Assembly: GCA_015233675.1 (NCBI GenBank)
Contig: JADFXH010000004.1
Span: forward strand, 8,492 to 72,491
Length of the DNA stretch: 64,000 nucleotides
Direction of reading: 5' to 3'
Source: Candidatus Omnitrophota bacterium
Lineage (GTDB): Bacteria > Omnitrophota > Gorgyraeia > Zapsychrales > Fredricksoniimonadaceae
Position 1 is the first letter of the stretch; each line of letters begins with the position of its first letter. Below the pieces are notes generated by a model that worked only from the letters and a program-made list of their open reading frames with translations, made no database searches and was not told the origin of the DNA. This document shows, piece by piece, positions 13,385 to 61,710 of this stretch. Position numbers and translations under genes: made by a program.

Positions 13385-13422
13385 AAAAATAAAATGGCCT
13401 TACGACCTGCCTGCTAAAAAGT

Positions 13423-19433: not shown

Positions 19434-20969
19434 TTAATCCTGCGTTTTTACAGTCAGCGTCAATTTGTTACCCGTAATTTCTTCAAACAACTCTTTCTTT
19501 TCCAGGAAATTTCCTTTTTCCAACAAAAAATTCTCATGTGTATAGGCCACGATCGTCGCATCACCTGCCGCATTAAACTTAACTTCCAGTTTTTTAATTT
19601 TCTGTTTATGTGAACGGTCCAAAGAATTGGCAATACGCAAAAGAGCGCTTAATTTCTGCACTAAAATCTGCTCCGGTGACGCCAGAGAATTATATAACAG
19701 ATGCGATTTTAAAGGCGCCGAGCGCCTGTGATAACGGGCGATACAGGCAATGATATTGATCTCATGCTCAGTCAGCCTGAATAGATTTAAGGAACTAATG
19801 ACGTATTCGCTGTGCTTGTGATGCGAGCGGTTATTGACAAACGTCCCTATATCATGCAAATAAGAAGCCAAAAGAAGATACAAACGGTCTTTTTCTTCCA
19901 GGCCCAAGATGCCCTTGAAAGCGCCAAAAAGCTGATCTGTCAAAGAAGCCACGTGTTTAAGATGGTTTAAATCCATGCCGTATTTACGGCAAATAAAATG
20001 CGCCACTGACACCAACTGGCTTAACTTATTGTCACCTTCCTCCATGTCGAATTTAAAAAGTAAATGCGCCAGAATTGCCTCAGACAAAGAAGCCTCGAGA
20101 ATGTAGACATATTCATTTTTATTAAGTTTAAACATGGTGTTAAGAATAATGGCATACCCTGTAATGGTGGAGGCAATATCCCCAGGGACATTGTAGGTGC
20201 TGGCAATCTCTTCGACGTTCATCTGCTTTAGGCGCGCAAGTAATTCCTGGGCTTCACTGGCTTTAAATTTAAAAAAGTCTGAGTCACGACGCTTATTAGG
20301 CAGCACATTCTGGATAAAAACAGAATAGTTCTCATCAATGAGAATAATATCGTCAATACTCAAATTAATATTATTTTTCTTAAGGAAAAATATTTCATTC
20401 TCGATGTACTCTTCGGTGGCTTCGTGCACCTCCTGCATTGACCCATCCAGATTCTGCATAAATTGTGAAAGACGCAGCGTTCCAATAGGAAAACCGATAT
20501 TCATAAGGGTAAGCCCTTTTTCCATGACCGAGATATCCAAAGAGCCGGCGCCTAACTCCGCGATCAACAAGTTTTTCTTGTCCACCGGATAGGTTTCCTT
20601 TAACTTATGGCTGAGGAAATAATCAATATAGTAAACAACATCTCCCGTGTTTAGAACATCAATCTTAAACCCTGTCTTACGCAGAACCGTATCAAGGAAA
20701 ATATCGCGGTTACGCGCTTCGCGCACAGCGGTGGTGGCAATGACCATGACATTTTCGACATCGTATTCTTTGAGAGATTCTTTGTATTTCTGTAATACCG
20801 CGGCGGTTTGATTGATGATAGTCTGAGGGATACGGCCCTTAAGGAATACGTGCTTGCCTAAAGGGATACTGTTTTTAAGCGACTCGATGATCTTGACATT
20901 TTCCCCGTGACTTTCAGCGATCAAGAGCTTAATAGTAGAAGAACCAATATCTATAACGGCAACTCGCAT
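19434..20969 (-). CDS. ppx: Exopolyphosphatase, Ppx/GppA family, with a C-terminal HD domain
   Basis: VAVIDIGSSTIKLLI actin-like fold start, LGAGSLDIS, HD-domain block LLASYLHDIG…HHKHS. Confidence 0.9.
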   Translation of the reverse strand: MRVAVIDIGSSTIKLLIAESHGENVKIIESLKNSIPLGKHVFLKGRIPQTIINQTAAVLQKYKESLKEYDVENVMVIATTAVREARNRDIFLDTVLRKTGFKIDVLNTGDVVYYIDYFLSHKLKETYPVDKKNLLIAELGAGSLDISVMEKGLTLMNIGFPIGTLRLSQFMQNLDGSMQEVHEATEEYIENEIFFLKKNNINLSIDDIILIDENYSVFIQNVLPNKRRDSDFFKFKASEAQELLARLKQMNVEEIASTYNVPGDIASTITGYAIILNTMFKLNKNEYVYILEASLSEAILAHLLFKFDMEEGDNKLSQLVSVAHFICRKYGMDLNHLKHVASLTDQLFGAFKGILGLEEKDRLYLLLASYLHDIGTFVNNRSHHKHSEYVISSLNLFRLTEHEINIIACIARYHRRSAPLKSHLLYNSLASPEQILVQKLSALLRIANSLDRSHKQKIKKLEVKFNAAGDATIVAYTHENFLLEKGNFLEKKELFEEITGNKLTLTVKTQD

Positions 20970-21089
20970 AATATCCCCTATAAATGTAATAGCCTGAAAA
21001 TATTATAATATGATAAAAATTACGTTAATTTTACAAGAGTATAGCACATTCTGTATAAAAGAAAATATTTAATGTCGCCCGGACTTACG

Positions 21090-21773
21090 TTATTTGTGCT
21101 TTTCTAGCCTGTCGAGCATGCGAAGTAGTCCGTCAAGGATAGTCAAAGGGTGCGGCGGACAGCCTGGGATAAAAAGATCAACAGGGATAATGGTGTCAAG
21201 CCCCCTGGAGGCTTGCGGGCTATCACAAAATATCCCTCCTGAGATTGCACAACCCCCTATCGCAATGACCAGCTTAGGATCAGGAGTAGCCTCATAGGTT
21301 TTAAGCAGCGCCTCGTGCATGTTCTTTGTAATAGGGCCGGTCACAACAATACCGTCAGCATGCCTGGGAGACGCCACAAACTGGATACCAAATCGGGAAA
21401 GATCAAAAACCGGAGTATTTAAAACATTTAGATCTAATTCGCAGGCGTTGCATCCTCCGGCTGAGACCTGCCTTAGCTTAAGCGAACGGCCAAAAATTTT
21501 CAACATACGGTCATTCAAAGCGCGGGCTAATACCATATCTCGCTTATGAAATAAAATCAAATCTTCACGTTTAGACACAGCCATTCGGTAATCATTCGAA
21601 TACACAACATCGCTATCAGGATTAAAAGATATTTCCCCAAGATCAACACTGCCGCTTGGATCCGCAACCACAGGACGCCCGCGATAACGCAAAGGCAAAG
21701 CCGGTGCGGGGGTCTTGGGAAAAAGCAAGGTCCTGCAGCCTTGTTTAAAACGAGTTTTAAGAATTTTTAACAT
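21090..21773 (-). CDS. NuoB/HycG-like small subunit of a group-4-hydrogenase-related (Ehr-like) complex
   Basis: Four Cys for the proximal [4Fe-4S] cluster are retained (GGCNACELD, GGCAISGG, PGCPPHP). The ATG at 21773 is preceded by GAGGGG, so I prefer it over 21797. Confidence 0.85.
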   Translation of the reverse strand: MLKILKTRFKQGCRTLLFPKTPAPALPLRYRGRPVVADPSGSVDLGEISFNPDSDVVYSNDYRMAVSKREDLILFHKRDMVLARALNDRMLKIFGRSLKLRQVSAGGCNACELDLNVLNTPVFDLSRFGIQFVASPRHADGIVVTGPITKNMHEALLKTYEATPDPKLVIAIGGCAISGGIFCDSPQASRGLDTIIPVDLFIPGCPPHPLTILDGLLRMLDRLEKHK

Positions 21774-21829
21774 AATGTTATCCCCTCTCTGATACAAAAT
21801 AAATATTGCGGCGGGCGCTAAGAATCTAT

Positions 21830-23341
21830 CTATAGATCATGCCCGCTATAAGACAAATTGAAACTCTTGTTACACAAGGGAAAATCAGAAATCTCCTGGC
21901 CCCGCATGGACAAAGCTAGCCCAAACCAGTTATGGAATGATGGGTCTTTGATCTTATAACGGGCAAATCCGCCCTGAGCGTCGCTTATACCCACATGCAT
22001 GATTTCCCCTCGCCATCCTTCGACCAAGGCCACGGCAAGTGTATCCGGTTTCATGGGACCAGGGGCTGCGAAAATATCTCCTGCCGGCAATGAAGGTAAA
22101 ACTCTAAGCAAGAATTCCAAAGACCTTAAGACCTCCTGGTTTCTAACCAAGGCTCTGGCATACACATCTCCGGTTGCCCCTAGAGAAATAGGCACATGTT
22201 GAAACTGCCACATCCCTGAAGCATAATTTATCCTGACATCACATTCCAGCTGACTGGCACGTCCAACCGGCCCCACGAGCCCTATCTCTTTGGCGTCTTT
22301 TAAGGCAATCACCCCTACCCCTTCAAAACGCGCTAACACCGACGGTCTGGCAAACAAAAGATCGCTTACGTCTTTAAATTCTTCCCTGTACTTTTTAAGC
22401 TTAAAACAAAAATCATCTGCCATTTTGGCATCGATATCAAACAGGACTCCCCCTGGCCTGCAGAGTCCTTTGCCAAAACGATTCCCTGTCAAAGCTAAAA
22501 GCAAATTCAAATAATCCCCTCGCATACGTCCAAAATAACCGCTCGTGGGTAAAAATCCCGCATCCATGCCTAGCGCTCCTAAATCCCCCACATGATTGGC
22601 TAATCTCTCCAGCTCTAAGGCAACAGCCCGAATCGCCTGGGCACGGGCAGAGATGCTGCATCCTGTTAAAGATTCCACCACTTCACAAAAAGCCGTAGAA
22701 TGGCCGATAGATGTATCTCCGGCAATTGATTCACTTAAAAGCATATTTCGCCTCAGGTCCCTGCCTGCCATGAGCCCTTCAATGCCCCGATGCTGATACC
22801 CTAACTGGATCTCCAAATGCATGACTGCTTCCCCATGGCATTGAAAACGAAAATGACCGGGTTCAATAATTCCAGCATGAACCGGCCCTACGCCAACTTC
22901 ATGGACTTCTTCACCATCAACCGCGTAAAAAGGATATTCCCCCGGGATCGTCTTATTTGCAATATTTTTCCAAATGTCAGACGCTGCCCTATAATTGGAA
23001 TGATACCTTAAAGGCTTAAGCCATGGGTGCCCCAGAGGCCGTATAGCCCACTGCTCTGCAATTTCCCGCTCAAATAAGTGCGCTTGTGGCAAATCTTTTG
23101 TTAAAGATTCGTACTGCGGGGATTCCGGAGAAATAATTGTCGATAAAATTTCAAGTTCGGCATCCTCATCCATACCCATAATGGCCAAAATCCTTATTTT
23201 TCCGTTTGCTTCTAAATTCCCGAATAAATTCACCAAACGGGCTGCTGCATGACAAGATTCAAGAATACGGTTCCGGAACTCTTGCACAGCTAAAACTTTT
23301 ATATTTGATAAAGCTATTTGCCCACCATTAAACAGTTCCAT
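21830..23341 (-). CDS. NuoC-NuoD/HycE-like large subunit lacking the [NiFe] cysteine ligands (Ehr-like)
   Basis: NuoC-like N-terminus (LFEREIAEQWAIRPLGHPWLKPLR). Conserved GPVHAGIIEPGHFRF and LGYQHRGIE. L1 position reads SESIAGDTSIGHSTAF and the C-terminus reads SFNLSYSGHDL (no CxxC). The ATG at 23341 has GGGAGGA 10 nt upstream. Confidence 0.85.
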   Translation of the reverse strand: MELFNGGQIALSNIKVLAVQEFRNRILESCHAAARLVNLFGNLEANGKIRILAIMGMDEDAELEILSTIISPESPQYESLTKDLPQAHLFEREIAEQWAIRPLGHPWLKPLRYHSNYRAASDIWKNIANKTIPGEYPFYAVDGEEVHEVGVGPVHAGIIEPGHFRFQCHGEAVMHLEIQLGYQHRGIEGLMAGRDLRRNMLLSESIAGDTSIGHSTAFCEVVESLTGCSISARAQAIRAVALELERLANHVGDLGALGMDAGFLPTSGYFGRMRGDYLNLLLALTGNRFGKGLCRPGGVLFDIDAKMADDFCFKLKKYREEFKDVSDLLFARPSVLARFEGVGVIALKDAKEIGLVGPVGRASQLECDVRINYASGMWQFQHVPISLGATGDVYARALVRNQEVLRSLEFLLRVLPSLPAGDIFAAPGPMKPDTLAVALVEGWRGEIMHVGISDAQGGFARYKIKDPSFHNWFGLALSMRGQEISDFPLCNKSFNLSYSGHDL

Positions 23342-23348
23342 AAATTTT

Positions 23349-24851
23349 TTATCCTCCCAAGAGTCCCGCGGCCTTATGTAAGTCATTATCAAGGAACGGC
23401 GGGATATAAAAACCAAGAATAAGAACTATGACGATTAAAATCAAGATTGGCATGATCATACTTAAACTTTCCCTTGTCTTCATTCTAAGCCCTAAGGGCG
23501 AAGGATCTTTATTCACATTAAGATCCTTCGCGCAGTTTACCCCCGAATGTTTTAATCGGGGGCTCATGATGACAGAAGAGACAGATTGTCCCTGAATCAT
23601 TTTTAAAATTATGTCTGCAATCCCTATAAAAATAAGGGCCAAAAACAAACAGTAAAAAAACGCGACTAAGTAATGATGTCCTATCAAGGCTGCGTACAGA
23701 ATCAATAATTCACTGATAAAAGTTCCGAAGGGAGGCATTGCGCTTACAGCCAAAAAAGCGGCTAAAAGAAAAATACCTGTAATCGGGAACTCACGAAGCA
23801 CCCCCCTGACATCATTGACTTTTTTGCTTTTATATTGCTTGTATAAATTGCCCGTCACCAAGAAAGCAAAACCCTTGGTAAAAGCGTTATTAATCACATG
23901 AAGGAGGCTGCCATAAATACCTATTGGCCCAAGGCCAATACCAATAGCTAAAATTCCCATATGCTCCACACTGGAGTAGGCAAACATCCTCTTATAATCT
24001 TCCTGACCCAAGATAAACACATAAGCCACGCCCAGAGAGATAATCCCTAAGAGTATGAGCATGGATGAAAAAAATGGAGTTTGGCCCGCGGCAAAACACA
24101 CCTGTCCGACTCTTAAAATACTTAAAAAAGCACAGTTTAATAAACATCCGGAAAGCAGCGCGGAAATTGGCGACGGCGCTTGTGAATGGGCGTCAGGCAG
24201 CCAAGTATGCATGGGAGCAAGCCCCATCTTAGTCCCGCATCCAATAAGCAAGAAAATTACGCTTATTTTAAGCCAAGGCACAGAAAGCTCCTTGGCATGG
24301 TTTAAAAGTTTATCAATAAAAAGGCTTTGAACATTATCGAAGCCCGCAACAGCAAGAAAATATGTCCCCAAAAGAGCCAAAGCTATCCCAATTAAACAAA
24401 TCATTAAAAATTTCCAGGTAGCTTCAATGCTTTGCCTGGTTTTTACAAAATTGATCAACGGCACACTGGATAAAGTCGTGGCTTCGATGCCGATTAATAA
24501 AAGCCCAAAATGCCGGCTGATAGTGACCAAAGTCATAAAAGAAAGGAAAAACAATAAGAATCCGATAAAAATACGATGGGAAACATCTGACTCATTTTTA
24601 AAATAACCCATCAAATAAAATGAGACCATTAAAAAAAGCACACTAACAACTGAAAGGACAAGAAGCCCTAAAGCATCCAGGCCTAAAAATCCATTTAAAA
24701 CAAAAGCCGGTTGAAACTTCCAGAAGCTAAACACGCAAGCCGTATGCAAAAATGCTGTAAAAAAGAGCATCCTGTTGCGGGATTTTTGTTCTGCAAGGAT
24801 GAAAACTGATCCCCCAACAATCAAAGGGAATAAAACCAAAAAAATCAACAT
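23349..24851 (-). CDS. Antiporter-like subunit (NuoN/HyfF-like), set 1
   Basis: 500 aa polytopic, Mrp/NuoLMN-family blocks (…[26 protein letters not shown]…, …YSSVEHMG…). Confidence 0.85.
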   Translation of the reverse strand: [500 protein letters not shown]

Positions 24852-24854
24852 AGA

Positions 24855-25499
24855 TCAATCCTTCAACGTGGTCAGCTGGGTCGTGTCCGTATTATTAAAT
24901 TCTACACTGATATGATTCACCACGATCCCCATGACCAGGGCGGCGATAAAAAGGTCCAAAAGAATGCCCATCTCAACTAACAGAGGCATTTTCTTCAACA
25001 ATAAAATAGCAAAAAGGAAAATACCATTTTCCAAAACTAAATATCCAATAACTTGGCTAATGGCTTTGTTACGGCCGACTAAAAGCAAGAATCCCATAAT
25101 AATTAAAGAAAATGAAGATGGGATCACCATGTCTGATCCTATCTTTACCGGAAAAATAAGTTTAGAAGCAAGCAAAAAGGCTCCTGCAATAGCAAAACCG
25201 CTTAATAATAAAGTCGTCCCTGTCCCTATTAGAGGGCTCACTTCACTGCGGACAGATACGTGCCTGATCGCCCAAAAAAGAAAATAAGGCATAATAAGGC
25301 CTCGAAGCACCATCGCAGCTAAACAGACAAAAATGATATAAAGCTCCATTTCTTTAGCATACAAAAAAAACGGCACACAGCCTAAAAACAAAGACTGCAG
25401 GCCGAAGATATGTATCATCGTTCCCAGACGGGTACTTGCCACAATAAAAAGGCCGAGAATTACAATTAAAATTAAGATAGCATCTAACCAAACATTCAT
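24855..25499 (-). CDS. HyfE/NuoK-like small membrane subunit, set 1
   Basis: 214 aa, about 7 hydrophobic helices, YLVLENGIFLFA block typical of HyfE-type subunits. TAATG overlap with the upstream gene. Confidence 0.8.
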   Translation of the reverse strand: MNVWLDAILILIVILGLFIVASTRLGTMIHIFGLQSLFLGCVPFFLYAKEMELYIIFVCLAAMVLRGLIMPYFLFWAIRHVSVRSEVSPLIGTGTTLLLSGFAIAGAFLLASKLIFPVKIGSDMVIPSSFSLIIMGFLLLVGRNKAISQVIGYLVLENGIFLFAILLLKKMPLLVEMGILLDLFIAALVMGIVVNHISVEFNNTDTTQLTTLKD

Positions 25500-26419
25500 T
25501 AATGCCCCCGAACTAAAATAACGATAAATCCAAAAACGGAAAATATAAACGCGGAAAATAATAAAAAAGAGACCTTGTTCAAACGTAAACGGGCCATTGT
25601 TGATTCAACGATACCGATCAAAACGGCAAAAGCAATGATTTCAAGAATAAAAAAGGCTGTGTCTATTAAAGAATCCCCAGTCCTAAACGTAATAATAATG
25701 GAAACAAGCATCGTGCCAAAAATAAAAAGTTTTACAGCCTTGCCATAAAGAATGTAGGCCAAATCGACCCCGCTATGGTCCAAGACCATGACTTCATGGA
25801 TCATGGTAAGTTCTAAATGGGTCTCAGGATCGTCAACGGGAATACGGGAATTCTCAACCAGAAGGATCAAAAAAAAGCTGACAACCACTAAAATTAAAAC
25901 CGGCCCAACCAAAAGCCAGGAAGAGGACAATCCACCCAGAAATATTTCAGATAAAGAAAGGTTTCTGGATAATAACGCCAAAATTGTCAAATTGAGGAAC
26001 ATGGTGATCTCTGACAAACACCCAAAAGTTGCTTCTCTGCTGGCCCCCATCCCTTCAAAACTTGATCCTGTATCTAAAGCGGCCAGAATAATAACGAAGC
26101 GGGCCAAAGCGAACAAATAAACAAAAAGAATCATGTCTCCCCAGAATTGGACCGGCGGCTTCATAGCCGCAATAGGCATCAGGATACCAGCGGATAAAAT
26201 GGCAGCTAAAGAAACCATGGGCGCCGCCCTAAATATCCAATTAGTAGTAACACTATAAACAGATGCCTTACGCATTAATTTATAAAGATCATAATACGGC
26301 TGGAGTAAAGGCGGGCCAATGCGGCCGGCAAAAAAAGCCTTAGTTTTTCCTATAAATCCCAAAAGCAAAGGAGGAAAAAAAATAAGAATAGTTAAATGTA
26401 ATAATAAAAGAATAGTCAT
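25499..26419 (-). CDS. NuoH/HycD-like membrane subunit, set 1
   Basis: 306 aa. Blocks KAFFAGRIGPPLLQPYYDL, AALDTGSSFEGMGASREA, HLELTMIHEVMVLDHSG as in HycD/HyfC. Confidence 0.85.
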   Translation of the reverse strand: MTILLLLHLTILIFFPPLLLGFIGKTKAFFAGRIGPPLLQPYYDLYKLMRKASVYSVTTNWIFRAAPMVSLAAILSAGILMPIAAMKPPVQFWGDMILFVYLFALARFVIILAALDTGSSFEGMGASREATFGCLSEITMFLNLTILALLSRNLSLSEIFLGGLSSSWLLVGPVLILVVVSFFLILLVENSRIPVDDPETHLELTMIHEVMVLDHSGVDLAYILYGKAVKLFIFGTMLVSIIITFRTGDSLIDTAFFILEIIAFAVLIGIVESTMARLRLNKVSFLLFSAFIFSVFGFIVILVRGH

Positions 26420-26501
26420 ATTTATATCACTTGCATTCTATTCGGCCTTTGTTTCTCTTCTCAGGCCAAATCTGCTTGGGCCTATGAGTGAAAGGATAAC
26501 C

Positions 26502-26647
26502 GTTGTTATTAGCGACACGGAAATTTTTTGCCGTCTGCTACGGTTTACAGCTTGGCTGCTATCGCGATAAATCATTCGCGGCATCCAAGCTGTAAATCCT
26601 TGCAGACTTTTGCCAAAAAATTTCTGAATGTGTCGCAAACAACAACG
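26502..26647. repeat. Palindromic intercistronic element, family A, copy 1 (inverted relative to copies 2 and 3)
   Basis: Arms gttgttattagcgacacggaaattttttgccgtctgctacgg … ccttgcagacttttgccaaaaaatttctgaatgtgtcgcaaacaacaac. Its reverse complement aligns along its length with 28958..29138. Confidence 0.75.
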
Positions 26648-26675
26648 TTTATCCTTCTATACATTTTGATAATGT

Positions 26676-26904
26676 GGCAGCAAGGATAAATTTGTTTTTG
26701 TGAGCGACTTGTCATTTTTAGTCAAAAGTTTTTTATTTTTTCGGGAATCCCGAGGCTTTACGCCGAGGGATGTCTGAACTTGTTTGAGCCTGAAGCTTCC
26801 TAAAGAAGCTGAAGGCGAGTTGTTCAGACACCGAAAAAACAAAGAACTTTTGACGTTAAAAGAATGACCCAGGAGCGAACAAAAATAAATTTATCCTTGC
26901 TGCC
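26676..26904. repeat. Long nested palindromic element, family B
   Basis: Left arm ggcagcaaggataaatttgtttttgtgagcg… Right arm reverse-complements to ggcagcaaggataaatttatttttgttcgctcc… Inner inverted repeat gtctgaacttgtttgagcctgaagcttc / gaagctgaaggcgagttgttcagac. Partial relatives near 16362..16416 and 51455..51497. Confidence 0.65.
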
Positions 26905-26931
26905 TTCGTCACGAATGATTTCAAACCCCCT

Positions 26932-28929
26932 TCAATGCAACTTCCACGCCAATAAAACGAAAAGAAAAAAAAGAATATACAGTATATAGATTTGCGTGTG
27001 CCCGCTTTGGATCCATTTAAATCTTCTGGAAAATCTTTTAATAATAAAAAAAATCGGCCGGAACAATAAATATTCTGAAACGTCTTTTACAGAAGAACTT
27101 AAACGGGCCTGAACAGGGAAATAGCCTTTTGGCCTGACAGTCTCAATCTTAAAATATAAAATTGTCCTGAAAATTTTTAAGATCGGTTTGGCAAATGAAG
27201 AGGAGGTGTACTGCATACGGGCTGTAACGTTTGCATATCCACACACCCAGGTTTCTGTCAATTTCATTGGATAGCCCAATATAAGAAATTTACGTAAAAG
27301 AGACAGCCCTACAAAAATTAAACCGCCAAACGATATAACCTTTGTAACCATCAAAAGAGGACCAATGATGGCTTCTATTAAAACATCAGGGATAAGCATG
27401 CCTGTGGCTGCCTGAGTCCCTTGAAACGCGTAATAAACCATGTTAGCCGGGAAAAGTCCAACCCAAAGGCAAATGACTGCCAGCAAAATCATAGGGCCAC
27501 GCATTATTAGATCTCCCTCCTGATAATGATGTTCCTCTGAAGATCTGTTATTACCTAAAAAAATAACACCAAAAGCTTTAGCAAAACAAAGCGCGGCTAA
27601 ACCACCAATAAGGCTTAATGCGACTATGGCCATACTTGAAAAAATAATACCAAAAATATCAAAATGAAAAACCCCTTCCAACAATGATCGAAAAACTAAC
27701 CACTCACTGATAAACCCATTAAAAAGCGGGAGCCCGCAAATAGACAAAGAGCCAATTAAAAAAAGATGTCCTGACCATGGAAGCCGCTTAAAGAGCCCCC
27801 CCATGTGTTCCATATCGCCCGTATGAGTTGAATGGATCACAGAACCGGCACTTAAAAACAAAAGTCCTTTAAATATCGCATGATTAAAAGTATGTAAAAG
27901 TGCCGCCGCATATCCCAGTAAAGCCACTGTGTCCTGATGATACGCATGCCCTATCATTCCTATGCCCAAGCCCAATGCAATAATGCCGATATTTTCAATG
28001 CTGTGATACGCTAACAATTTCTTGATCTCATGTTGGCCCAAAGCATATAACACCCCTCCAACTCCCGAGACAGCCGCCATTATTAAAAGCAGTACTCCGC
28101 ACCACAGGGGAAAATCTTTAACAATGGCCATGGCACGCATCAAGCCATAAATTCCGACTTTAATAACCACCCCTGAAAGTAAAGCAGAAATATAACTAGG
28201 CGCCGCTGGATGAGCATAGGGCAGCCAAATATGAAAAGGCATGAATCCGGCTTTAATGCCGAAACCTATAAACGCCAGCATAAAAAGTAAAGAAGCTAAA
28301 CCCAAAGGAAATGGGGTTGCCCTCATCTGATCAAAATTCATAGACCCGGCTTTGACTCCCATGATCAAAAACATTAAAACCAAACAGAAAACTCCCACAT
28401 GGGTTGCTATCAAATAAATATAACCTGCCTTGCGCACCTGTTCGCTTTCATTGTAAAAGGTGATAAGAAAATAAGAGACTACGGTCATTAGTTCCCACGC
28501 CGCAAGGAATAAAACCGCATTTTTAGCGACTAGAACAAGGATGATGACAATCATGAGCAAATGATAAAGGGCCAAATGCACGCCCACGTTCCTTTGGCCG
28601 GTATATTCACGTAAATAGCCATACGCATAAATGCCGGCGGAAAGCGATACAATGAAAAACAATAAAAGGAAAAACGCGCTTAAAAAATCTATGCCTATAT
28701 AAAATTCAAACAACGGAAGGTGTCCAGACAACCGAAAATCTAGGCCTGTCAACGGCAAGAAAAGCTCCTTTTGGCATAAAACACTTAAGACTGACCAAAG
28801 GCCAAATCCACAAGCCGCAACCAATGACCACAAAAACAGGTAAGCAGAGGTTTTCCTGGAACGACAAAATAAGAATATCAATAAACTTGATATTGTCAGG
28901 ATAGAAAGACTGATTAATAATAGATTCAT
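26932..28929 (-). CDS. HyfB/HycC/NuoL-like antiporter-like subunit, set 1
   Basis: 665 aa. Blocks WELMTVVSYFLI, FHIWLPYAHPAAPSYISALLSG, and the HyfB-type C-terminus TWVCGY…MQYTSSSFAKP. Confidence 0.85.
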   Translation of the reverse strand: MNLLLISLSILTISSLLIFLFCRSRKTSAYLFLWSLVAACGFGLWSVLSVLCQKELFLPLTGLDFRLSGHLPLFEFYIGIDFLSAFFLLLFFIVSLSAGIYAYGYLREYTGQRNVGVHLALYHLLMIVIILVLVAKNAVLFLAAWELMTVVSYFLITFYNESEQVRKAGYIYLIATHVGVFCLVLMFLIMGVKAGSMNFDQMRATPFPLGLASLLFMLAFIGFGIKAGFMPFHIWLPYAHPAAPSYISALLSGVVIKVGIYGLMRAMAIVKDFPLWCGVLLLIMAAVSGVGGVLYALGQHEIKKLLAYHSIENIGIIALGLGIGMIGHAYHQDTVALLGYAAALLHTFNHAIFKGLLFLSAGSVIHSTHTGDMEHMGGLFKRLPWSGHLFLIGSLSICGLPLFNGFISEWLVFRSLLEGVFHFDIFGIIFSSMAIVALSLIGGLAALCFAKAFGVIFLGNNRSSEEHHYQEGDLIMRGPMILLAVICLWVGLFPANMVYYAFQGTQAATGMLIPDVLIEAIIGPLLMVTKVISFGGLIFVGLSLLRKFLILGYPMKLTETWVCGYANVTARMQYTSSSFAKPILKIFRTILYFKIETVRPKGYFPVQARLSSSVKDVSEYLLFRPIFFIIKRFSRRFKWIQSGHTQIYILYILFFLFVLLAWKLH

Positions 28930-28957
28930 TGTTGAGTCTCTTTCAAGCGGCCTATCT

Positions 28958-29138
28958 CTAGCACGGATGAATAACTATTTTGTATTTGGCACGTTCAGGA
29001 ATTTTTTGCCAAAAGTCTGCAAGGTTTTACAGCGCGGATGCCGCGGATGCTTTATCGCGATAGCATCCAAGCTGCAAACCGTAGCAGACGGCAAAAATAT
29101 TCCGTGCCAAATACAAAATAGTTATTCATCCGTGCTAG
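28958..29138. repeat. Palindromic intercistronic element, family A, copy 2 (archetype)
   Basis: Perfect 36-nt terminal inverted repeats ctagcacggatgaataactattttgtatttggcacg (28958..28993) and cgtgccaaatacaaaatagttattcatccgtgctag (29103..29138). The interior is further self-complementary. Lies between the stop at 29151 and the start at 28929. Confidence 0.85.
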
Positions 29139-29150
29139 CATCATGCATAG

Positions 29151-30563
29151 CTAGACAGACACTATCAAGGCAGCCGCATTGTGGAGCAATTTCTCCAAAG
29201 GAGACGGCATCCATAATCCGATACTGATCAATAGTATACCAGCCATTGCAATGGCTACGTTCATGTATATATTCTCTTTCTTGGCAAGGAGAGGCTCTTT
29301 AGGCTGGCCATGAATTACATTAAGAATAATTTTTCCAATACCAATAAACATTAAGCCCAGACAAACAACACCAACCGCGGCCATTAAATAATGCTTGGAA
29401 ATGATGGCCGCGTTAAGGATCAAAAGCTCGCTATGAAAAGTCGCAAAAGGAAACATGCCTGTCCCCGCTAATAGGGCCGCAATTAAAAAAACACCTGTCA
29501 GCGGATATATATGAATGACTCCCCTAATTTCATCAGCGCTCGCGGAGCCGTATTTCTGAGCTAAAGAACCCGCTGTTAAAAACATAACAACCTTGGCCAA
29601 TGCATTATTGATCATATGAAACAAAGCTCCGAACAAACCGACTGTCCCCAATCCAAGCCCCAATACCAAAAGTCCCATATGTTCAATAGAAGAATAGGCA
29701 AATGCTCTTTTAATGTTCCTCTCTCCTAAAATAAACATAGCAGGGACAATCAGTGATAAAACGCCGGATAGGATCAGGATGGAAGAAAAAAAATCAGTTA
29801 GCCCTGTTTTATTACAAATTTGAGCGATTCGAAGCAAAGCTAAAAAAGAACATTGGGTCAATGCCCCTGCCATCAACACCGCCACCATTCCTGGGGCCTG
29901 TCCGTACGCTTCCGGTTTCCAACTATGTGTTGGGGCCAAGCCCATTTTACAACCGTAACCCACAATAAAAAAGATTATACTAAGCTTCAACCAATTTACC
30001 GATAGTAAAGGCGCTCCTTTTAAAAGGGCCGGCAATAAAAGAGTATGCACATCATGGGCCGCAATGGCCAAAAAGAATGTGCCCATCAAAGCTAAAGCTA
30101 TGCCTACGGAACAAATCAACAAATACCGCCAAGTAGCCTGTAAACTTTGCTGACTACGATGGAAACTTATAAGAGGCGCGCTAAAAAGCGTGGTCGCTTC
30201 TATGGCTACCCACAAAAGACCAAAATGATAACTCACCGCAACAAGTGTCATCATTGAGAGCAAAAGGAATAAGCAAGTTACAAAGACACGGTTGCGTCCA
30301 AGCTCATGTTTAAAATAACCTATCATAAAAATAGACACTGACAAAAAAAGAAAACTGATAATCGAAAGCAATATAAGCCCCAAAGAATCAAGCACTAAAA
30401 AACCATGGTATTCCGAAGGGGGGAACTCTTTCCAAAATGAAGCAACAAACAGGCTGTGGGCTAAAGAAACGGCCCCAAAAAGCTTGAGCCTAAAGTATTT
30501 ACTTACCGGTAAAAGAACTCCCAGCGCACATAAAAACGGCATTAAAATCAAAATCGTCAACAT
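29151..30563 (-). CDS. Antiporter-like subunit (NuoN/HyfF-like), set 2
   Basis: 470 aa. Collinear with 23349..24851 (e.g. GLAPTHSWKPEAYGQAPGMVAVLMAG vs [26 protein letters not shown]). Confidence 0.85.
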   Translation of the reverse strand: MLTILILMPFLCALGVLLPVSKYFRLKLFGAVSLAHSLFVASFWKEFPPSEYHGFLVLDSLGLILLSIISFLFLSVSIFMIGYFKHELGRNRVFVTCLFLLLSMMTLVAVSYHFGLLWVAIEATTLFSAPLISFHRSQQSLQATWRYLLICSVGIALALMGTFFLAIAAHDVHTLLLPALLKGAPLLSVNWLKLSIIFFIVGYGCKMGLAPTHSWKPEAYGQAPGMVAVLMAGALTQCSFLALLRIAQICNKTGLTDFFSSILILSGVLSLIVPAMFILGERNIKRAFAYSSIEHMGLLVLGLGLGTVGLFGALFHMINNALAKVVMFLTAGSLAQKYGSASADEIRGVIHIYPLTGVFLIAALLAGTGMFPFATFHSELLILNAAIISKHYLMAAVGVVCLGLMFIGIGKIILNVIHGQPKEPLLAKKENIYMNVAIAMAGILLISIGLWMPSPLEKLLHNAAALIVSV

Positions 30564-31216
30564 TAAAACGTTTCCCCCATATTCGATTGCACAACGGACG
30601 CTGTGTTCTTCTCAAATTCTTCATTGATATGGTTGACCACGATGGCCATGATAAACACAGCAACAAAAATATCCAAAAGGATGCCCATTTCTATAAGGAC
30701 TGGCATGACATCAAACAATGATATAGCGAAAAGAAAAATGCCGTTTTCAAGGATCAAATAACCCAAAACCTGGGTCACGGCACGAGTACGTGTTACCATG
30801 ATCATAAATCCTAAAAGGACCGTTGAAAGAGAACATGGCAGGACCAAGTCAGAGGCGGGCTGACCCGGAATTTTCAAAGATAAAGAAACCCAAAATGCCC
30901 CGGCTATGACTATGGCCCCAAAAATAATGGATGCCCCAAATCCGATGATAGGCTTGATTTCTGAACGCATGGACACATGCCGGATAGCCCAAAATAAAAT
31001 ATATGGCACTAACGCGGCCTTTAAGATCATGGTGACAAGACCAATCATGATATCCCTGCTTGAAATACTAGAGGCATGCAGAAAAAACGGCAATAGCCCT
31101 AAGACAAAAGACTGAAGGGCAAAAACGCCAATCATCGCGGCTACGCGGTGATTGGACAAAATAATAAGCGATAAGAATACAATAACAATACAGATCACAT
31201 CAACCCAACTTGTCAT
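30563..31216 (-). CDS. HyfE/NuoK-like small membrane subunit, set 2
   Basis: Paralog of 24855..25499 (YLILENGIFLFA). I prefer the ATG at 31216 (MTSWVDVICIV…) because the ORF-track start at 31273 overlaps the upstream gene. Confidence 0.8.
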   Translation of the reverse strand: MTSWVDVICIVIVFLSLIILSNHRVAAMIGVFALQSFVLGLLPFFLHASSISSRDIMIGLVTMILKAALVPYILFWAIRHVSMRSEIKPIIGFGASIIFGAIVIAGAFWVSLSLKIPGQPASDLVLPCSLSTVLLGFMIMVTRTRAVTQVLGYLILENGIFLFAISLFDVMPVLIEMGILLDIFVAVFIMAIVVNHINEEFEKNTASVVQSNMGETF

Positions 31217-31220
31217 ACCT

Positions 31221-32144
31221 CTACATCCTCCACATCTTGACGACAAATCCAAAAAAAGCCAAAGCAAAAGCAATCAACAATAAATTATTAACCCTGTTAA
31301 GCCTGAGGCGCGCCATAGTCGATTCTATAATGCCCACCGTGACGGACAAAACCAGCATCCCGCCTAAAAAAATCAGCATATCCCAAGCCGTATTCCCCGA
31401 TTGGACTGGAACAATAATAGGGACCATGATGCTGGCAAAAACAAAAAATTTTATAGCCGCTGCGTAAAGCATATAGCCCAAATCTACCCCGCTGTGGTCT
31501 AAAATCATCACTTCATGGATCATGGTCAATTCCAAATGAGTATCAGGATCATCAATGGGAATGCGGGCGTTTTCTGTCAGAATAACAATAAAAAAACTGC
31601 CTACCACCAAAAGCAAAACTGGCCCCATCAGTGTCCAAGACAAAGGGAAATTAGCCCCTATCATCGCAGATAAAGAAATGCTGTGGCTAACAAACGAAAG
31701 CGTAATGAAATTCATAAATAGCGCCAGTTCAGAAAGGCAGGAAAAAAAAGCCTCACGGCTGGCTCCCATTCCTTCAAAACTAGATCCGGTATCAAGAGCC
31801 GCAGAGATCATAAAAAACCGGGCAAACCCCAAGATATAGGCTGCCAGGAGTATATCACCGGAAAATTTTACAGGAGCTTTAAATGTCCCAAGGGGAACAA
31901 GCGCCGATAAAACCAAAACAGCGGCAAGATTAATGATAGGTGCGGCACAAAAAATCCATGTGGTTGTCCTGCTATAGACAGAATTCTTTTGAAACAGCCG
32001 CTGCAAGTCAAAATACGGCTGAAAAAAAGACGGCCCTTTCTTGCCTGCAAAAAATGCCTTTACTTTTGAAATAATGCCTAAAAATAAAGGTGACAGGGTT
32101 AGGACAATTAGCCAGTGGGATAAAATTAAGAATATAATGTTCAT
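31221..32144 (-). CDS. NuoH/HycD-like membrane subunit, set 2
   Basis: Paralog of 25499..26419 (AALDTGSSFEGMGASREA and HLELTMIHEVMILDHSG are both conserved). The ATG at 32144 forms an ATGA overlap with the upstream stop. The ORF-track start at 32156 is a TTG. Confidence 0.85.
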   Translation of the reverse strand: MNIIFLILSHWLIVLTLSPLFLGIISKVKAFFAGKKGPSFFQPYFDLQRLFQKNSVYSRTTTWIFCAAPIINLAAVLVLSALVPLGTFKAPVKFSGDILLAAYILGFARFFMISAALDTGSSFEGMGASREAFFSCLSELALFMNFITLSFVSHSISLSAMIGANFPLSWTLMGPVLLLVVGSFFIVILTENARIPIDDPDTHLELTMIHEVMILDHSGVDLGYMLYAAAIKFFVFASIMVPIIVPVQSGNTAWDMLIFLGGMLVLSVTVGIIESTMARLRLNRVNNLLLIAFALAFFGFVVKMWRM

Positions 32145-33961
32145 TTCAATTTCCAAACCAGCAAAAATATCAAATACAAGAAAATGTACATCAAGTATAT
32201 TTGGGTATAACGAATACGGTTCATGTCCAGCTTCTTTGAAAAACTTGTCAATCGAGCAAACAAAGGCTTAAATAAGAATTCTTCGGATGCATCATGGACC
32301 GATGACGACATGGATGTTTTAGCTGGAAATTTCCCTTTAACATCCCCCCCTTCACGTCGAAAAAATAGAATTCCTTTTACAAAATCAACAATAAGAAGGG
32401 CAAAGGAAGATGAGGTGTATTGAATCTTAGGCGTCATCTGAAAAAAACCGCAGCCCCAGGTTTCACGAACAGGCTGGGCGTGGCCTTGCAAAAGTTTGCG
32501 ACGTATACCTACAAGGGCCAAAACCAAGGCAAAAAAAAGAAAAACACCGCTAATGACAAGAGATAAGGGGTAAAAAATAGTTCCCATAGGAAGACTTGCA
32601 AGGTCCGTATGTGATAAATAGGCTCCGCCTTGAAAAGCTGCATTGGCCATTATTTGAGGAAAAAGGCCGATCCACAAGCATAACCCTCCCAGGACCAGCA
32701 TGGGAATAATCATTAATAAAGAAATTTTGCCCGTGGATGGCGGTTCTTGCAGATGGCGAGGTTCGCCTAAAAACACGGTGCCATATACCTTGGTAAAACA
32801 AGCCAAGGCTAACGCTCCCATGAGAGCCAATGAAATAATTCCCACAGCACAAGTAAAAGCCCCCTGCAAAGGCAAATGAAAAAGCCCTTGAAAAAGGCCA
32901 AAATAAATAATGAACTCACTGATAAATCCATTAAATAACGGCAGTCCACAAATAGCCAAAGCCCCAACAAGAAATAAAATGCTGACCAACGGCATAGTAC
33001 GGGCGAGTCCTCCCATCAGGTCCATATCACTTGTATGCGTTCTTTGAATAACACATCCCGCACCCATAAACAAAAGCCCTTTAAATATAGCATGGTTTAA
33101 AACGTGCAAAAGTGCGCCGCCAAATCCAAGTACGGATAAAAATGGCATGTGATGGCTCTGCCCCAATAGCCCAACGCCTAAACCCAGCGAAATAATCCCG
33201 ATATTCTCAATGCTATGATAAGCCAACAGCTTTTTAAGTTCATGCTGACCTAAAGCGTACAAAACTCCCATCAGCCCACACACGACACCAATGATTAAAA
33301 TCAAATATCCGCACCAATCCGGTAATACCCCGATTATCCATAACACCCGACAGATGCCGTAAATGCCCATTTTGATAGCCACCCCCGATAAAATAGCAGA
33401 AATATGTGTCGGAGCTGCGGGATGCGCGTGAGGCAGCCAAATATGGACCGGAACAAACCCTGCTTTGATCCCAAAACCAATAATGGCCAAAAGAAGTATA
33501 CTACCCGCAAAAGCAACAGGAAAACTCGAATGACTGATAATCTCAAAGTTCATGGACCCGGCATTATGCGCCATTAAAAAGAACATTAAAATAAGAAGAA
33601 AAGTCCCGCAATGGGACATGATCAAATAAAGGAAGCCAGCACGACGCACAGAGGATTTTTCATCATTAAAAACAATTAAAAAATAGGTAGAAATGGACAT
33701 CATTTCCCAAGCACCTAAGAAAAGAATCACATTATTGGCCAAGACGATCAAAACAAGAGCGGTTGACAAAAGGAAATAAAAAAAGATATGGAGCCCCATT
33801 GACTTGGTGGTCCTATACTGACGCATGTACCCTACAGCGTAAACGCCGGCACATAAAACCAGGATGGTGACTGCGGTAAGAAAGATAAGACTCAAAGAAT
33901 CAAGTTTAAGAGCAAACTCCCCAAAAGGGACATGCCATGGCCATTGAAATGATTCTAGCAT
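32141..33961 (-). CDS. HyfB/HycC/NuoL-like antiporter-like subunit, set 2
   Basis: Paralog of 26932..28929 (WEMMSISTYFLI, VHIWLPHAHPAAPTHISAILSG, TWGCGF…IQYTSSSFALL). I prefer the ATG at 33961 (MLESFQWPWH…), which avoids overlap with the ptsN-like gene. Confidence 0.85.
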   Translation of the reverse strand: MLESFQWPWHVPFGEFALKLDSLSLIFLTAVTILVLCAGVYAVGYMRQYRTTKSMGLHIFFYFLLSTALVLIVLANNVILFLGAWEMMSISTYFLIVFNDEKSSVRRAGFLYLIMSHCGTFLLILMFFLMAHNAGSMNFEIISHSSFPVAFAGSILLLAIIGFGIKAGFVPVHIWLPHAHPAAPTHISAILSGVAIKMGIYGICRVLWIIGVLPDWCGYLILIIGVVCGLMGVLYALGQHELKKLLAYHSIENIGIISLGLGVGLLGQSHHMPFLSVLGFGGALLHVLNHAIFKGLLFMGAGCVIQRTHTSDMDLMGGLARTMPLVSILFLVGALAICGLPLFNGFISEFIIYFGLFQGLFHLPLQGAFTCAVGIISLALMGALALACFTKVYGTVFLGEPRHLQEPPSTGKISLLMIIPMLVLGGLCLWIGLFPQIMANAAFQGGAYLSHTDLASLPMGTIFYPLSLVISGVFLFFALVLALVGIRRKLLQGHAQPVRETWGCGFFQMTPKIQYTSSSFALLIVDFVKGILFFRREGGDVKGKFPAKTSMSSSVHDASEEFLFKPLFARLTSFSKKLDMNRIRYTQIYLMYIFLYLIFLLVWKLK

Positions 33962-33980
33962 ATTAAAAAATCTGCCTTCT

Positions 33981-34664
33981 TTATAAAGCTCTTGCCGTTC
34001 TTGATTCCGCGACTTGAAATGCCGCCAGAATCTCTTCACTTTGCCCTCGGCGCTTTAAAGCCGATATAACTTCTTCGTCCTGCAGGCAAAATGCCAAGCG
34101 TGATAATAAAGACAAGTGCCATTTAAACGATGACGACAAAATGACAAATAAAGTATGCACCCCTTCACCATCGAGTGCAGAAAAATCAACAACCTTTTCA
34201 AGAAAGAAAATTCCAACGATAGGCTCCATTCCAGCCAGCACCACCGGATGTTTAACATGCGGAATAGCAATACCATTGCCAATACCGGTTGTTCCTGCCT
34301 GCTCACGGGACAATAGCATCTCTTTTAAAGAGGCTCTCTGAATATGACCGGGCAAGGGTAATAGATCTAGGACCTTCCCAAGAACTTCTTCCCGTAAAGA
34401 CCCATTGATCCCAAAATATACGCCTCCACGCATAAGTGCCGGGGTGATGATATCCCTGCCTTGACGGGTCTTTTCACAAAGCTTCAATGCACCCGTGGTA
34501 AGACGTATCCGGTTTTTTAAGGCCCACTCTAAAACTTCAACCGAATTAAAATAATACTGGTCATTAGCCTTAATGGCTGGCATACCCTTCTTATTAAGCC
34601 ATTGATAAAGCGTCTCCTCCTCAATTTCAAATGCCTTTTCTATATCACGAAAAGTCAGCTGCAT
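33981..34664 (-). CDS. HTH domain fused to a PTS EIIA(Ntr)/PtsN-type domain
   Basis: N-terminus LTFRDIEKAFEIEEETLYQWLNKKGMPAIK (excisionase/MerR-like HTH). EIIA-2 active-site block GIGNGIAIPHVKH. GAGAGGGA RBS. Confidence 0.8.
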   Translation of the reverse strand: MQLTFRDIEKAFEIEEETLYQWLNKKGMPAIKANDQYYFNSVEVLEWALKNRIRLTTGALKLCEKTRQGRDIITPALMRGGVYFGINGSLREEVLGKVLDLLPLPGHIQRASLKEMLLSREQAGTTGIGNGIAIPHVKHPVVLAGMEPIVGIFFLEKVVDFSALDGEGVHTLFVILSSSFKWHLSLLSRLAFCLQDEEVISALKRRGQSEEILAAFQVAESRTARAL

Positions 34665-34677
34665 GGCGTCCCTCTCA

Positions 34678-36342: not shown

Positions 36343-36576
36343 ACTTTCTGTATTGAAAAATCCCTGCCATTTTTTAATAAAGAGGACTATTCATCCATGC
36401 TATGAATAAAAATAATGGCTTTTAAAATTTTGGCAGAATTTTTAGTGAGGTAAACAGCGTAATGATACCTCCCCTCTTTTAAAAGAGGGGTGAGGGGGAA
36501 TTCCTGAGAAATGCCCAAACTATTAAAATCAAATCACCCTGCTTTGACTGTTTCTTTAAAAAAATTCTTTCCTTGG

Positions 36577-38022: not shown

Positions 38023-38112
38023 CCATCTATCCCCCTTCAACTACAAAGAAACACAAATTTAATATATTTCACTCAATAGGATTAACGAATTCCGCCACAC
38101 CGGAGAGATTAG

Positions 38113-51259: not shown

Positions 51260-51450
51260 GCGCGATGAGACAGGAGGAAGAAATTTATTTTTATTCGGTA
51301 CGTTCAGGAATTTTTTGCCAAAAGTCTGCAAGGAGTTATGGCTATAATGTTCCAAATGAAGAGAAACTTTAGAACATTATAGCCATAAACCGAAGCAGAC
51401 GGCAAAAATATTCCGTGCCGAATACATAATACCTGTTCATCCATCACGCA
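51260..51450. repeat. Palindromic intercistronic element, family A, copy 3 (boundaries approximate)
   Basis: ggtacgttcaggaattttttgccaaaagtctgcaagg and cgaagcagacggcaaaaatattccgtgccgaatac are nearly identical to copy 2. The inner hairpin differs (gttatggctataatgttc … gaacattatagccataac). Confidence 0.8.
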
Positions 51451-51498
51451 ACAAATTGCGCCAGAAGCAGAAAGAACGAATTTATCCCTGCTGCCTCA

Positions 51499-55659: not shown

Positions 55660-55877
55660 GTTTTCTCCTGATAGTCGTCAAGGTTCTGCCCACATTAAAC
55701 TTTTATCACTATCTACGGGGCCTGGCTCGGAGTTGATGTTCAGGGGCTCCTAATTCGAGGGCCGCCCTATCAGCATCCAGAACAGAGATTTCCCTTAATA
55801 GCCCCAGTGAGCAGTCACCGTCCGCCCCTGAACATCAACTCCGAGCCACCCGTTCATTCTTGACATATCTTTTGTCA
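55660..55877 (-). promoter_or_regulatory. Structured 5' leader of the TonB-dependent receptor; possible atypical cobalamin riboswitch
   Basis: 218-nt gap. A perfect 24-bp stem (55724..55747 with 55824..55847) encloses 76 nt containing AAGGGAAAUCUCUGUUCUGGAUGCUGAUAGGGCGG, which resembles the core of the E. coli btuB leader. No clear B12 box. Confidence 0.35.
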
Positions 55878-60842: not shown

Positions 60843-60854
60843 AAACTCGCCTTT

Positions 60855-61700: not shown

Positions 61701-61710
61701 ATTTTATTAT

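Follow-up and report, generated by a model that had tools for sequence, protein, structure and literature searches.

The name of the complexes called Ehr (Ech- or energy-converting-hydrogenase-related) reportedly goes back to Coppi in 2005, and the family is said to have been defined by Marreiros and colleagues in 2013. These complexes are described as relatives of the Ech/group 4 hydrogenases and of complex I that lack the ligands of the [NiFe] centre; they were first identified in Geobacter, and the Geobacter sulfurreducens locus GSU0739-0745 encodes the subunits EhrA-1, EhrC, EhrL and EhrS (PMC7894505, PMC8691401, PMC3569383, PMC6349859, PMC10284858). Their function is still called unknown in the open-access literature (PMC6349859, PMC10284858, PMC7894505). 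Here we analyse a 64,000-nucleotide stretch of the genome of a Candidatus Omnitrophota bacterium (contig JADFXH010000004.1; hereafter the window, whose numbering is used throughout), in which an earlier note, made from the letters alone, had recognised a hydrogenase-type large subunit without [NiFe] cysteines and had pointed to an Ehr complex. That interpretation is supported by the homology of the large subunit EhrL, by the absence of the [NiFe] cysteines and by the presence of small, NuoH-like and antiporter-like subunits in one operon, and the locus is almost certainly a member of the Ehr family and not a [NiFe] hydrogenase. The best explanation of the data as a whole, to which we assign a probability of roughly 0.6, is that the locus encodes a compact Ehr complex of the membrane, with the architecture of hydrogenase 4/formate hydrogenlyase (FHL) and of the core of complex I, that would not handle H2 and would link a redox or redox-sensed event to ion movement.

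The Ehr cluster comprises ten genes, all on the minus strand, which form two four-gene membrane modules followed by one large/small pair:

32141..34039, minus strand: B1, HyfB/NuoL-like antiporter-like subunit of module 1 (Proton_antipo_M, 7.8e-55)
31221..32156, minus strand: C1, NuoH/HyfC-like subunit of module 1 (NADHdh, 5.6e-30)
30563..31273, minus strand: E1, HyfE-like subunit of module 1 (pairwise match to E. coli HyfE)
29151..30563, minus strand: F1, HyfF/NuoN-like antiporter-like subunit of module 1 (Proton_antipo_M, 2.4e-36)
26932..28929, minus strand: B2, HyfB/NuoL-like antiporter-like subunit of module 2 (Proton_antipo_M, 1.3e-49)
25499..26419, minus strand: C2, NuoH/HycD-like subunit of module 2 (NADHdh, 4.2e-33)
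24855..25499, minus strand: E2, HyfE-like (NuoK-related) subunit of module 2 (weak Oxidored_q2 match)
23349..24851, minus strand: F2, HyfF/NuoN-like antiporter-like subunit of module 2 (Proton_antipo_M, 2.8e-46)
21830..23341, minus strand: EhrL, large subunit of the fused NuoC-NuoD/HycE type that lacks [NiFe] ligands (PDB, Pfam and Foldseek matches)
21090..21773, minus strand: EhrS, NuoB/HycG-type small subunit (Oxidored_q6, 7.1e-31)
21459..21773, minus strand: N-terminal ~105 residues of EhrS, a HycF/NuoI vestige (profile search and alignment)

The gene order that the earlier note had read (antiporter-like, NuoH-like, HyfE/NuoK-like, antiporter-like, large, small) was borne out by domain and NCBIfam matches, but the locus that it had counted as six genes extends to ten, because directly upstream there is another complete membrane module (34039..29151), a paralogue of the one already noted. 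The true start of B1 is probably further downstream than listed, since its GTG start overlaps the gene of a putative regulator. For module 2, the top NCBIfam models were hydrogenase 4 subunit B for B2 (575 bits, below the cutoff of 667), HyfE for E2 (88 bits, below cutoff) and hydrogenase 4 subunit F for F2, and the top PDB match of C2 was HycD (1.5e-32), with the LDTGSxF..GASRE block and the glutamates of the conserved acidic loop aligned. A promoter and terminator scan of 20800-36500 returned counts not above those of shuffled controls and thus gave no evidence on operon structure.

EhrL is a protein of 503 residues translated from 23341..21830 of the minus strand, with the start placed at the ATG at 23341 rather than the TTG at 23416 because its nearest database relatives are also 503 residues long. 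A phmmer search against PDB sequences matched it to E. coli HycE (7z0s_E, 1.7e-43), Pyrococcus furiosus MbhL (1.4e-42) and Thermus thermophilus Nqo4 (6.5e-33), and Pfam assigned it to Complex1_49kDa (PF00346, 1e-34), with a borderline match to Complex1_30kDa. The family blocks GPVHAGIIEPGHFRF, LGYQHRGIE and ISDFPL, previously reported as intact, are all present in the translation. In the HMMER alignment to HycE, 'lsesiAgdTsighstaf' lies opposite 'lsdrvCgiCgfahstay' and 'fnlSysG' opposite 'ldpCysC', placing A207, T210, S497 and G500 at the positions of the four [NiFe] cysteine ligands (CGIC to AGDT and CYSC to SYSG) and confirming the four substitutions that had been aligned by eye. The two former ligand motifs are:

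22688..22735, minus strand: former L1 motif, residues 203-218, SESIAGDTSIGHSTAF; cysteines replaced by A207 and T210, with a new conserved D209
21833..21865, minus strand: former L2 motif, residues 493-503, SFNLSYSGHDL; cysteines replaced by S497 and G500

The possibility that CxxC ligands are present but displaced, which the earlier note had raised, was checked in the same alignment, and no shifted or alternative CxxC was found in EhrL. The protein ends at the former L2 motif, without a C-terminal extension; it does not match the ligand motifs of group 4 [NiFe] hydrogenases (L1 RxCGxCxxxH, L2 DPCxxCxx[HR]), and it scored below the cutoff of the Pfam NiFeSe_Hases model (16.6 against 25.8 bits). 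When an AlphaFold2 monomer model of EhrL, built from a 40-sequence alignment (mean predicted local distance difference test score [pLDDT] 72, predicted template modelling score 0.78), was searched with Foldseek, the first match was HycE (7z0s_E), followed by the fused NuoCD proteins of E. coli and Aquifex, confirming a fused NuoC-NuoD architecture. The assignment of EhrL as a homologue of group 4 hydrogenases and NuoD that lacks [NiFe] ligands and lies in an Ehr-type operon is supported, and with all four cysteines replaced the protein cannot bind a [NiFe] centre through the canonical ligands.

The substitutions recur throughout the family. In a set of 80 loci from species-representative genomes, for which motifs were counted from alignment-based tables, AGD[TS] and S[FY]NLSYxGxDL (NKSFNLSYxGxDL) were present in EhrL of 80/80. 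They come from Omnitrophota, Anaeromyxobacter, Eisenbacteria, Gemmatimonadota, Lindowbacteria, Brocadiaceae and Geobacteraceae and from many Desulfobacterales, with Anaeromyxobacter soli SG29 and Desulforhopalus singaporensis DSM 12130 as cultured carriers. The best homologues of EhrL (57-88% identical) were encoded by metagenome-assembled genomes (MAGs) of Candidatus Omnitrophota, and a HMMER scan of 1.84 billion cluster representatives returned 6299 relatives at E <= 0.001. Among the top 150, 113 sequences were full length, ~95 with the Ehr pattern and 5 with all four cysteines. S497 and G500 are conserved in 99% and 100%, respectively, of the 95 Ehr representatives, and few parts of EhrL are as conserved as the region of the former active site. 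All ten genes of the cluster are under purifying selection: the ratio of nonsynonymous to synonymous substitution rates (dN/dS; Nei-Gojobori, against four relatives) was 0.07-0.13 for each gene and 0.07-0.09 for EhrL, values that are approximate, with dS of ~1-1.5 near saturation, yet far below 1. Because the motifs recur in every locus across phyla and dN/dS is low, the loss of the cysteines reflects neither decay nor chance or sequencing error; nor is it a discovery in itself, since it is the published defining trait of Ehr.

We compared the 95 Ehr representatives with the five cysteine-bearing relatives. The following positions reach a conservation of at least 85% in Ehr and differ in the hydrogenases:

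D209 in Ehr, V in the nearest hydrogenases
D260 in Ehr, G in the nearest hydrogenases
D466 in Ehr, S in the nearest hydrogenases
P467 in Ehr, A in the nearest hydrogenases
S497 in Ehr, C in the nearest hydrogenases
G500 in Ehr, C in the nearest hydrogenases
L503 in Ehr, R in the nearest hydrogenases

The rebuilt pocket region has thereby acquired conserved aspartates. At the L1 ligand positions, residue 207 is Ala or Ser and residue 210 Thr or Ser across Ehr, and the hydrogenase-type residues E160, H163, R165 and H214 are kept. In an ungapped HMMER alignment of EhrL with T. thermophilus Nqo4, whose numbering recovers the well-known Nqo4 residues, Tyr87 corresponds to G208, which is 96% conserved in Ehr, and His38 to I159, indicating that the quinone ligands of complex I are absent from EhrL. 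Nqo4 Asp139, the partner of His38, aligns with D260 (86% conserved in Ehr), and the APSF motif of complex I aligns with DPSF of EhrL, in which the proline is P467. These two pocket-region residues are common to Ehr and complex I and are absent from the nearest hydrogenase relatives of Ehr.

The small subunit has retained its cluster site. EhrS aligns with MbhJ (8e-41) and HycG (3.8e-35) with the cysteines C108, C111, C175 and C205 in place, in agreement with the earlier reading that this NuoB-like partner keeps all four [4Fe-4S] cysteines, and the four are kept in every complete EhrS sequence among the relatives. EhrS also carries ~105 residues N-terminal to the NuoB domain. Searched on its own against the PDB, this segment of the window protein gave a weak match to E. 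coli NuoI that was not significant (E 0.087) and consisted of two collinear pieces bypassing the cluster-binding core, and a profile of the EhrS extensions of 16 relatives matched HycF (3.8e-19, over the first 110 residues of HycF), NuoI (2.6e-14) and MbhN (1e-11), identifying EhrS as a HycF-HycG fusion. The extension bears ferredoxin motifs in relatives, whereas in Omnitrophota, including the window copy, 24 residues are deleted and LGEISFNPD stands in place of LGRCxFCxxC; the window copy has one cysteine in 107 residues, and both CxxCxxCxxxCP motifs are gone. The statement that the locus lacks a HycF/NuoI-type subunit is therefore correct in functional terms, as no cysteine motif is left, but not as regards the protein itself, a remnant of which persists at the N-terminus of EhrS. 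Across the relatives, the HycF-like domain was found in these states:

Two full cysteine motifs: Anaeromyxobacter, Lindowbacteria, Brocadiaceae, Desulfomicrobium
CxxCxxC and one CP, enough for one cluster: most Desulfobacterales
Decayed motifs: Eisenbacteria, Gemmatimonadota
No motif left: Omnitrophota, including the window copy

Since both HycF-type cysteine motifs have been lost, the NuoB-type [4Fe-4S] cluster is the sole predicted cofactor site here, and the window is predicted to encode the most cofactor-poor form of the complex, with a single [4Fe-4S] site and no iron-sulphur wire leading to it.

Comparison with the closest described systems places the locus among them as follows. By its description, the G. 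sulfurreducens Ehr (GSU0739-0745) has the same subunit types in the same order, a large subunit that also lacks the [NiFe] cysteines and a small subunit that also keeps its cluster, whereas the window copy has two complete membrane modules. The large subunit of a Geobacteraceae MAG (locus L031) is 50% identical to the window EhrL, with the same AGDT and NKSFNLSYCGFDL motifs; this locus gave no small-subunit data, and the contrast in the HycF domain comes from the Desulfobacterales and Anaeromyxobacter-type relatives. The best matches for every Ehr subunit are found in E. coli hydrogenase 4 (HyfABCDEFGHI) and FHL (HycBCDEFG, PDB 7Z0S), namely HycE, HycD, HycG, HycF, HyfB, HyfE and HyfF, all below the NCBIfam equivalog cutoffs. 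Ehr has the fused NuoC-NuoD large subunit in common with these E. coli complexes but differs from them in lacking HyfA/HycB, a separate HycF/HyfH, HyfD, formate dehydrogenase and the maturation protease site. A Pfam scan of the window, which covered most open reading frames (ORFs) of at least 120 residues in the 64 kb of genome visible, with small ORFs of HypA/HypC size outside it, found no formate dehydrogenase, NuoEFG, hyp or stand-alone ferredoxin domains, consistent with the earlier claim that formate dehydrogenase and hyp genes are missing.

The identity of EhrL is 30% with HyfG, 23% with NuoCD and 32-35% with the nearest cysteine-bearing hydrogenases (P0222, P0233, P0246, P0256 and P0264), which possibly belong to HydDB group 4f. 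In common with Ehr these relatives have most conserved blocks and the C-terminal frame NKSFxLxYxxxD[RL], which in them ends in DR, but both of their motifs contain CxxC. Their scores with HyfG exceed those with EhrL, which fits the reported position of Ehr close to the group 4f hydrogenases (PMC10284858). The protein called 'EhrL' in Desulfotomaculum ruminis has four cysteines (PMC3569383). Complex I (NuoB, NuoCD, NuoH, NuoI and NuoL/M/N) has a homologous core that likewise lacks the [NiFe] cysteines, and shares with Ehr Asp139 (Nqo4 numbering), the APSF proline and the antiporter residues; in contrast, Ehr lacks Tyr87 and His38, and its locus holds no NuoE, NuoF or NuoG and, by the Pfam scan, no NuoA or NuoJ domain. 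All Nuo equivalogs scored below their cutoffs, EhrL reaching 183 bits with the NCBIfam NuoD equivalog against a cutoff of 360. The MBS complex is a hydrogenase-derived sulfane-sulfur reductase that has given up H2 chemistry and kept the NuoB-type cluster and the ion-translocating modules, and is thus a precedent for a new reaction beside the proximal cluster. MBS/Mbx of P. furiosus (PDB 6U8Y) is a more distant relative of Ehr, since the match of EhrL to MbsL (4.9e-19) is much weaker than that to HycE; it is also unlike Ehr in having 13 subunits, a Mrp module and a separate NuoI-like subunit.

The two membrane modules of the window are diverged paralogues (identities of 48% for B1/B2, 55% for C1/C2, 49% for E1/E2 and 45% for F1/F2), both under purifying selection. 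In alignments with E. coli NuoL/M/N and HyfB/D/F, the charged residues that serve ion translocation, namely the Glu of transmembrane helix 5 (TM5), the Lys of TM7, the Lys of TM11 and the Glu of TM12, are kept in B1, B2, F1 and F2, and B1 also keeps the TM8 Lys. Most relatives have a single membrane module. The module 1 type lies beside the large/small pair in the Omnitrophota loci L002 and L004-L009, and the module 2 type does so in L001, L010-L014, L081, L082 and L086; L081, L082 and L086 are syntenic with the window, with glycogen genes, EIIA and the Ppx-Ppk-ROK context in common. Because each type occurs alone beside an orthologous pair, either arm can be the sole one encoded next to that pair. 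Clusters with two modules were found elsewhere in 2 loci of ~160, L085 with the order of the window and L003 with the order module 1, large, small, module 2. As the modules occur singly and the NuoH-like subunit docks only one peripheral arm, two isoforms with a common EhrL/EhrS are the simplest reading, and we give an even chance to the proposal that module 1 and module 2 would be alternative membrane arms for a single large/small pair. Neither the tandem duplication of the membrane arm nor the full erosion of the fused ferredoxin domain was found in the open-access literature, in an incomplete search outside which the founding papers fall. A separate feature of module 1 is that F1 (29151-30563) reads HSWKPEAYGQAP where F2 has the usual HTWLPDAHSQAP, corresponding to Leu to Lys and His to Tyr changes adjoining TM7/8.

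We propose that the Omnitrophota Ehr would work as follows. The complex would neither make nor consume H2. Electrons would reach the EhrS cluster directly from a soluble donor, for example ferredoxin, because no iron-sulphur wire remains. The movement of H+ or Na+ through the membrane modules would be coupled to an event, redox or redox-sensed, that would take place at this one [4Fe-4S] cluster and in an adjoining, rebuilt polar and acidic pocket, for which we propose the residues E160, D209, T210, D260, D466 and S497. Of the activities considered, a redox-linked ion translocator is the most likely, ahead of a redox-independent antiporter, though its odds are about level. In favour of this proposal, the HycF domain passes through a series of two, one and zero clusters across the relatives while the NuoB-type cysteines are always kept, arguing that the essential chemistry must sit at the NuoB-type cluster and the adjoining pocket. 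Ehr subunits are also expressed in G. sulfurreducens and are more abundant on formate (PMC7894505). The further suggestion that the single cluster and the acidic pocket (D209, D260, D466 and E160) form a new catalytic or sensing site, with one peripheral pair and two interchangeable arms, is speculative, and we consider it doubtful.

Several points weigh against this proposal. The literature searched holds no biochemical data on any Ehr complex. The AlphaFold2 monomer has pLDDT below 50 at residues 110-183 (the beta1-beta2 loop) and 481-503 (the C-terminal motif), and because the model is unreliable in those segments no conclusion is drawn on whether D209, D260 and D466 cluster in space. Both ferredoxin clusters have been lost in this lineage, and electron transfer could have been abandoned with them. 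The idea of two isoforms is based on gene arrangement only, and the dN/dS values are approximate, owing to near-saturated dS. Finally, no conserved gene for an electron donor or acceptor was found next to the Ehr operon among its recurrent neighbours, which across phyla are SulP (Omnitrophota), DASS (Desulfobacterales) and CLC anion transporters and CBS-domain proteins; together with a PtsN-like regulator, these neighbours are as compatible with ion homeostasis as with redox chemistry.

The alternative that survives best, although we regard it as unlikely, is that Ehr is a Mrp-like cation/proton antiporter, redox-independent or merely redox-gated, that serves pH, Na+ or K+ homeostasis and in which the peripheral pair is a structural or regulatory cap and the Fe-S cluster a structural element or a sensor. 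Such an antiporter would suit the loss of both HycF-type clusters and of the [NiFe] site, the intact antiporter residues, the lack of a conserved redox partner gene nearby and the identity of the neighbours, which are SulP/DauA-like, DASS and CLC transporters, CBS proteins and the PtsN-like regulator with EIIA and helix-turn-helix (HTH) domains, found directly upstream in 25 of the 73 related loci having enough upstream DNA. Against it stand the retention of the four NuoB-type cysteines in every lineage and the region of the former active site, which belongs to the best-conserved parts of EhrL. Moreover, many lineages keep one or two extra ferredoxin-type clusters on the same polypeptide, which indicates an electron path in ancestral and most extant Ehr complexes.

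We consider it improbable that Ehr is a minimal ferredoxin:quinone oxidoreductase, which would reduce menaquinone at the interface of EhrL, EhrS and the NuoH-like subunit. Two residues of the pocket agree with this idea, as D260 corresponds to complex I Asp139 and P467 to the APSF proline, neither being present in the nearest cysteine-bearing hydrogenases, but the quinone ligands Tyr87 and His38 are replaced by G208 (96% Gly) and I159. Similarly, the NuoH-like subunit and the N2-type cluster site are retained, but the locus has neither NuoA nor NuoJ, which line the quinone tunnel of complex I. The family is common in the menaquinone-containing Desulfobacterales, Geobacteraceae and Anaeromyxobacter, whereas quinone biosynthesis is patchy in Omnitrophota (PMC10066038), and the score with the NuoD equivalog, 183 bits, falls far short of the cutoff of 360. 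There is next to no chance that the locus encodes a genuine [NiFe] hydrogenase of group 4 whose ligands are shifted or non-canonical, or a pseudo-hydrogenase in decay: despite the fold and operon of the Hyf/FHL type and the retention of the proton-relay-like E160 and H214, EhrL has no alternative CxxC, conservation reaches 99-100% at S497 and G500, NiFeSe_Hases stays below its cutoff, no hyp genes occur among the scanned window ORFs, and decay is excluded by a dN/dS of ~0.08 and by conservation across phyla. At the level of the sequence, neither a true hydrogenase nor a pseudogene survives.

Ehr is widespread, including in the cultured Geobacter, Anaeromyxobacter and Desulforhopalus, and has had no assigned function in roughly two decades. 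Should the single cluster and the acidic pocket indeed form a new catalytic or sensing site, with one peripheral pair and two interchangeable arms, the Omnitrophota complex would offer a natural minimal system in which to study how antiporter-like subunits are driven by redox or protonation events at the N2-type site, and would represent a living intermediate that links hydrogenases to complex I. The Ehr-specific residues D209, D260, D466, P467, S497 and G500 are direct targets for mutagenesis, and the relatives that combine the same large and small subunits with different modules are natural membrane-arm swaps. The family also bears on genome annotation: a survey of Omnitrophota took PF00346 as the marker of 'respiratory complex I' (PMC10066038), and because EhrL matches this model, some of the complex I inferred in Omnitrophota may be Ehr instead.

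Around the cluster, the window has genes of glycogen and of polyphosphate metabolism and for a ROK kinase, an ACT-malic enzyme and a DauA-like SulP transporter, as well as type IV pilus ATPase genes and an operon for cobalamin salvage. Directly upstream of B1 lies the regulator gene:

33981..34664, minus strand: PtsN-like putative regulator (HTH_17 and phosphotransferase system EIIA-2 domains; Pfam and NCBIfam matches)

Upstream of this regulator, 34678-38040 encodes a DauA-like SulP/STAS transporter and the ACT-domain malic enzyme. The SulP protein scored 514 bits with the DauA model (below its cutoff) compared to 265 bits with BicA. In Desulfobacterales, the most frequent neighbour of Ehr is a 473-residue left-handed beta-helix protein (12614-14035 of locus L059 and ~30 other loci), which is closely homologous (E 2e-156) to PDB 3C8V, a 'putative acetyltransferase' from structural genomics. 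The SulP neighbours and the beta-helix protein prompted the idea of CO2 hydration or a bicarbonate pump, by analogy with NDH-1MS/CupA or DAB. This idea was dropped, as the beta-helix protein belongs to the 3C8V family, has no carbonic-anhydrase match and is not found in the Omnitrophota loci, and the SulP protein is closer to DauA than to BicA. A coupling of Ehr to formate dehydrogenase (PMC6349859) was likewise rejected, as neither fdhA nor a nuoEF-like gene turned up in the scanned window ORFs or among the recurrent neighbours of the 80 loci.

The cluster of the window is interrupted by a non-coding insertion:

26420..26931, no strand assigned: 513-bp non-coding insertion between B2 and C2 (inverted repeats, RNA fold)

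It holds a near-perfect hairpin of 229 nucleotides made of nested inverted repeats (26676-26904; RNA fold of -107 kcal/mol, z -12.7) and a second hairpin at 26533-26607. Because the B and C genes abut in relatives, which have no insertion, it looks like a miniature inverted-repeat transposable element lying inside the operon. A core of ~45 nucleotides of the hairpin element (TAAACCGnAGCAGACGGCAAAAA..TTCCGTG) and its terminal-repeat word recur at 51385-51498, where the second copy is intergenic, between a gene for an ATP-binding cassette (ABC) ATPase and a HlyD-like gene; none of the 162 loci retrieved was found to contain the terminal-repeat word.

Elsewhere in the window, two ORFs, 40172-41875 (567 residues, inside the glycogen gene cluster) and 1205-2191 (328 residues), had no Pfam match at E <=1e-4. 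The segment 3503-7983 encodes two T2SSE/PilB-type ATPases in tandem and, flanking them, two short proteins made up of hardly more than a MshEN domain; a T2SSF/PilC gene adjoins. A cobalamin riboswitch (61551-61710, minus strand, 62 bits) lies upstream of the operon 53644-61460, which encodes a CobC-like histidine phosphatase, CobU, CobT, CobS, BtuF/C/D-like ABC transporter parts and a TonB-dependent receptor.

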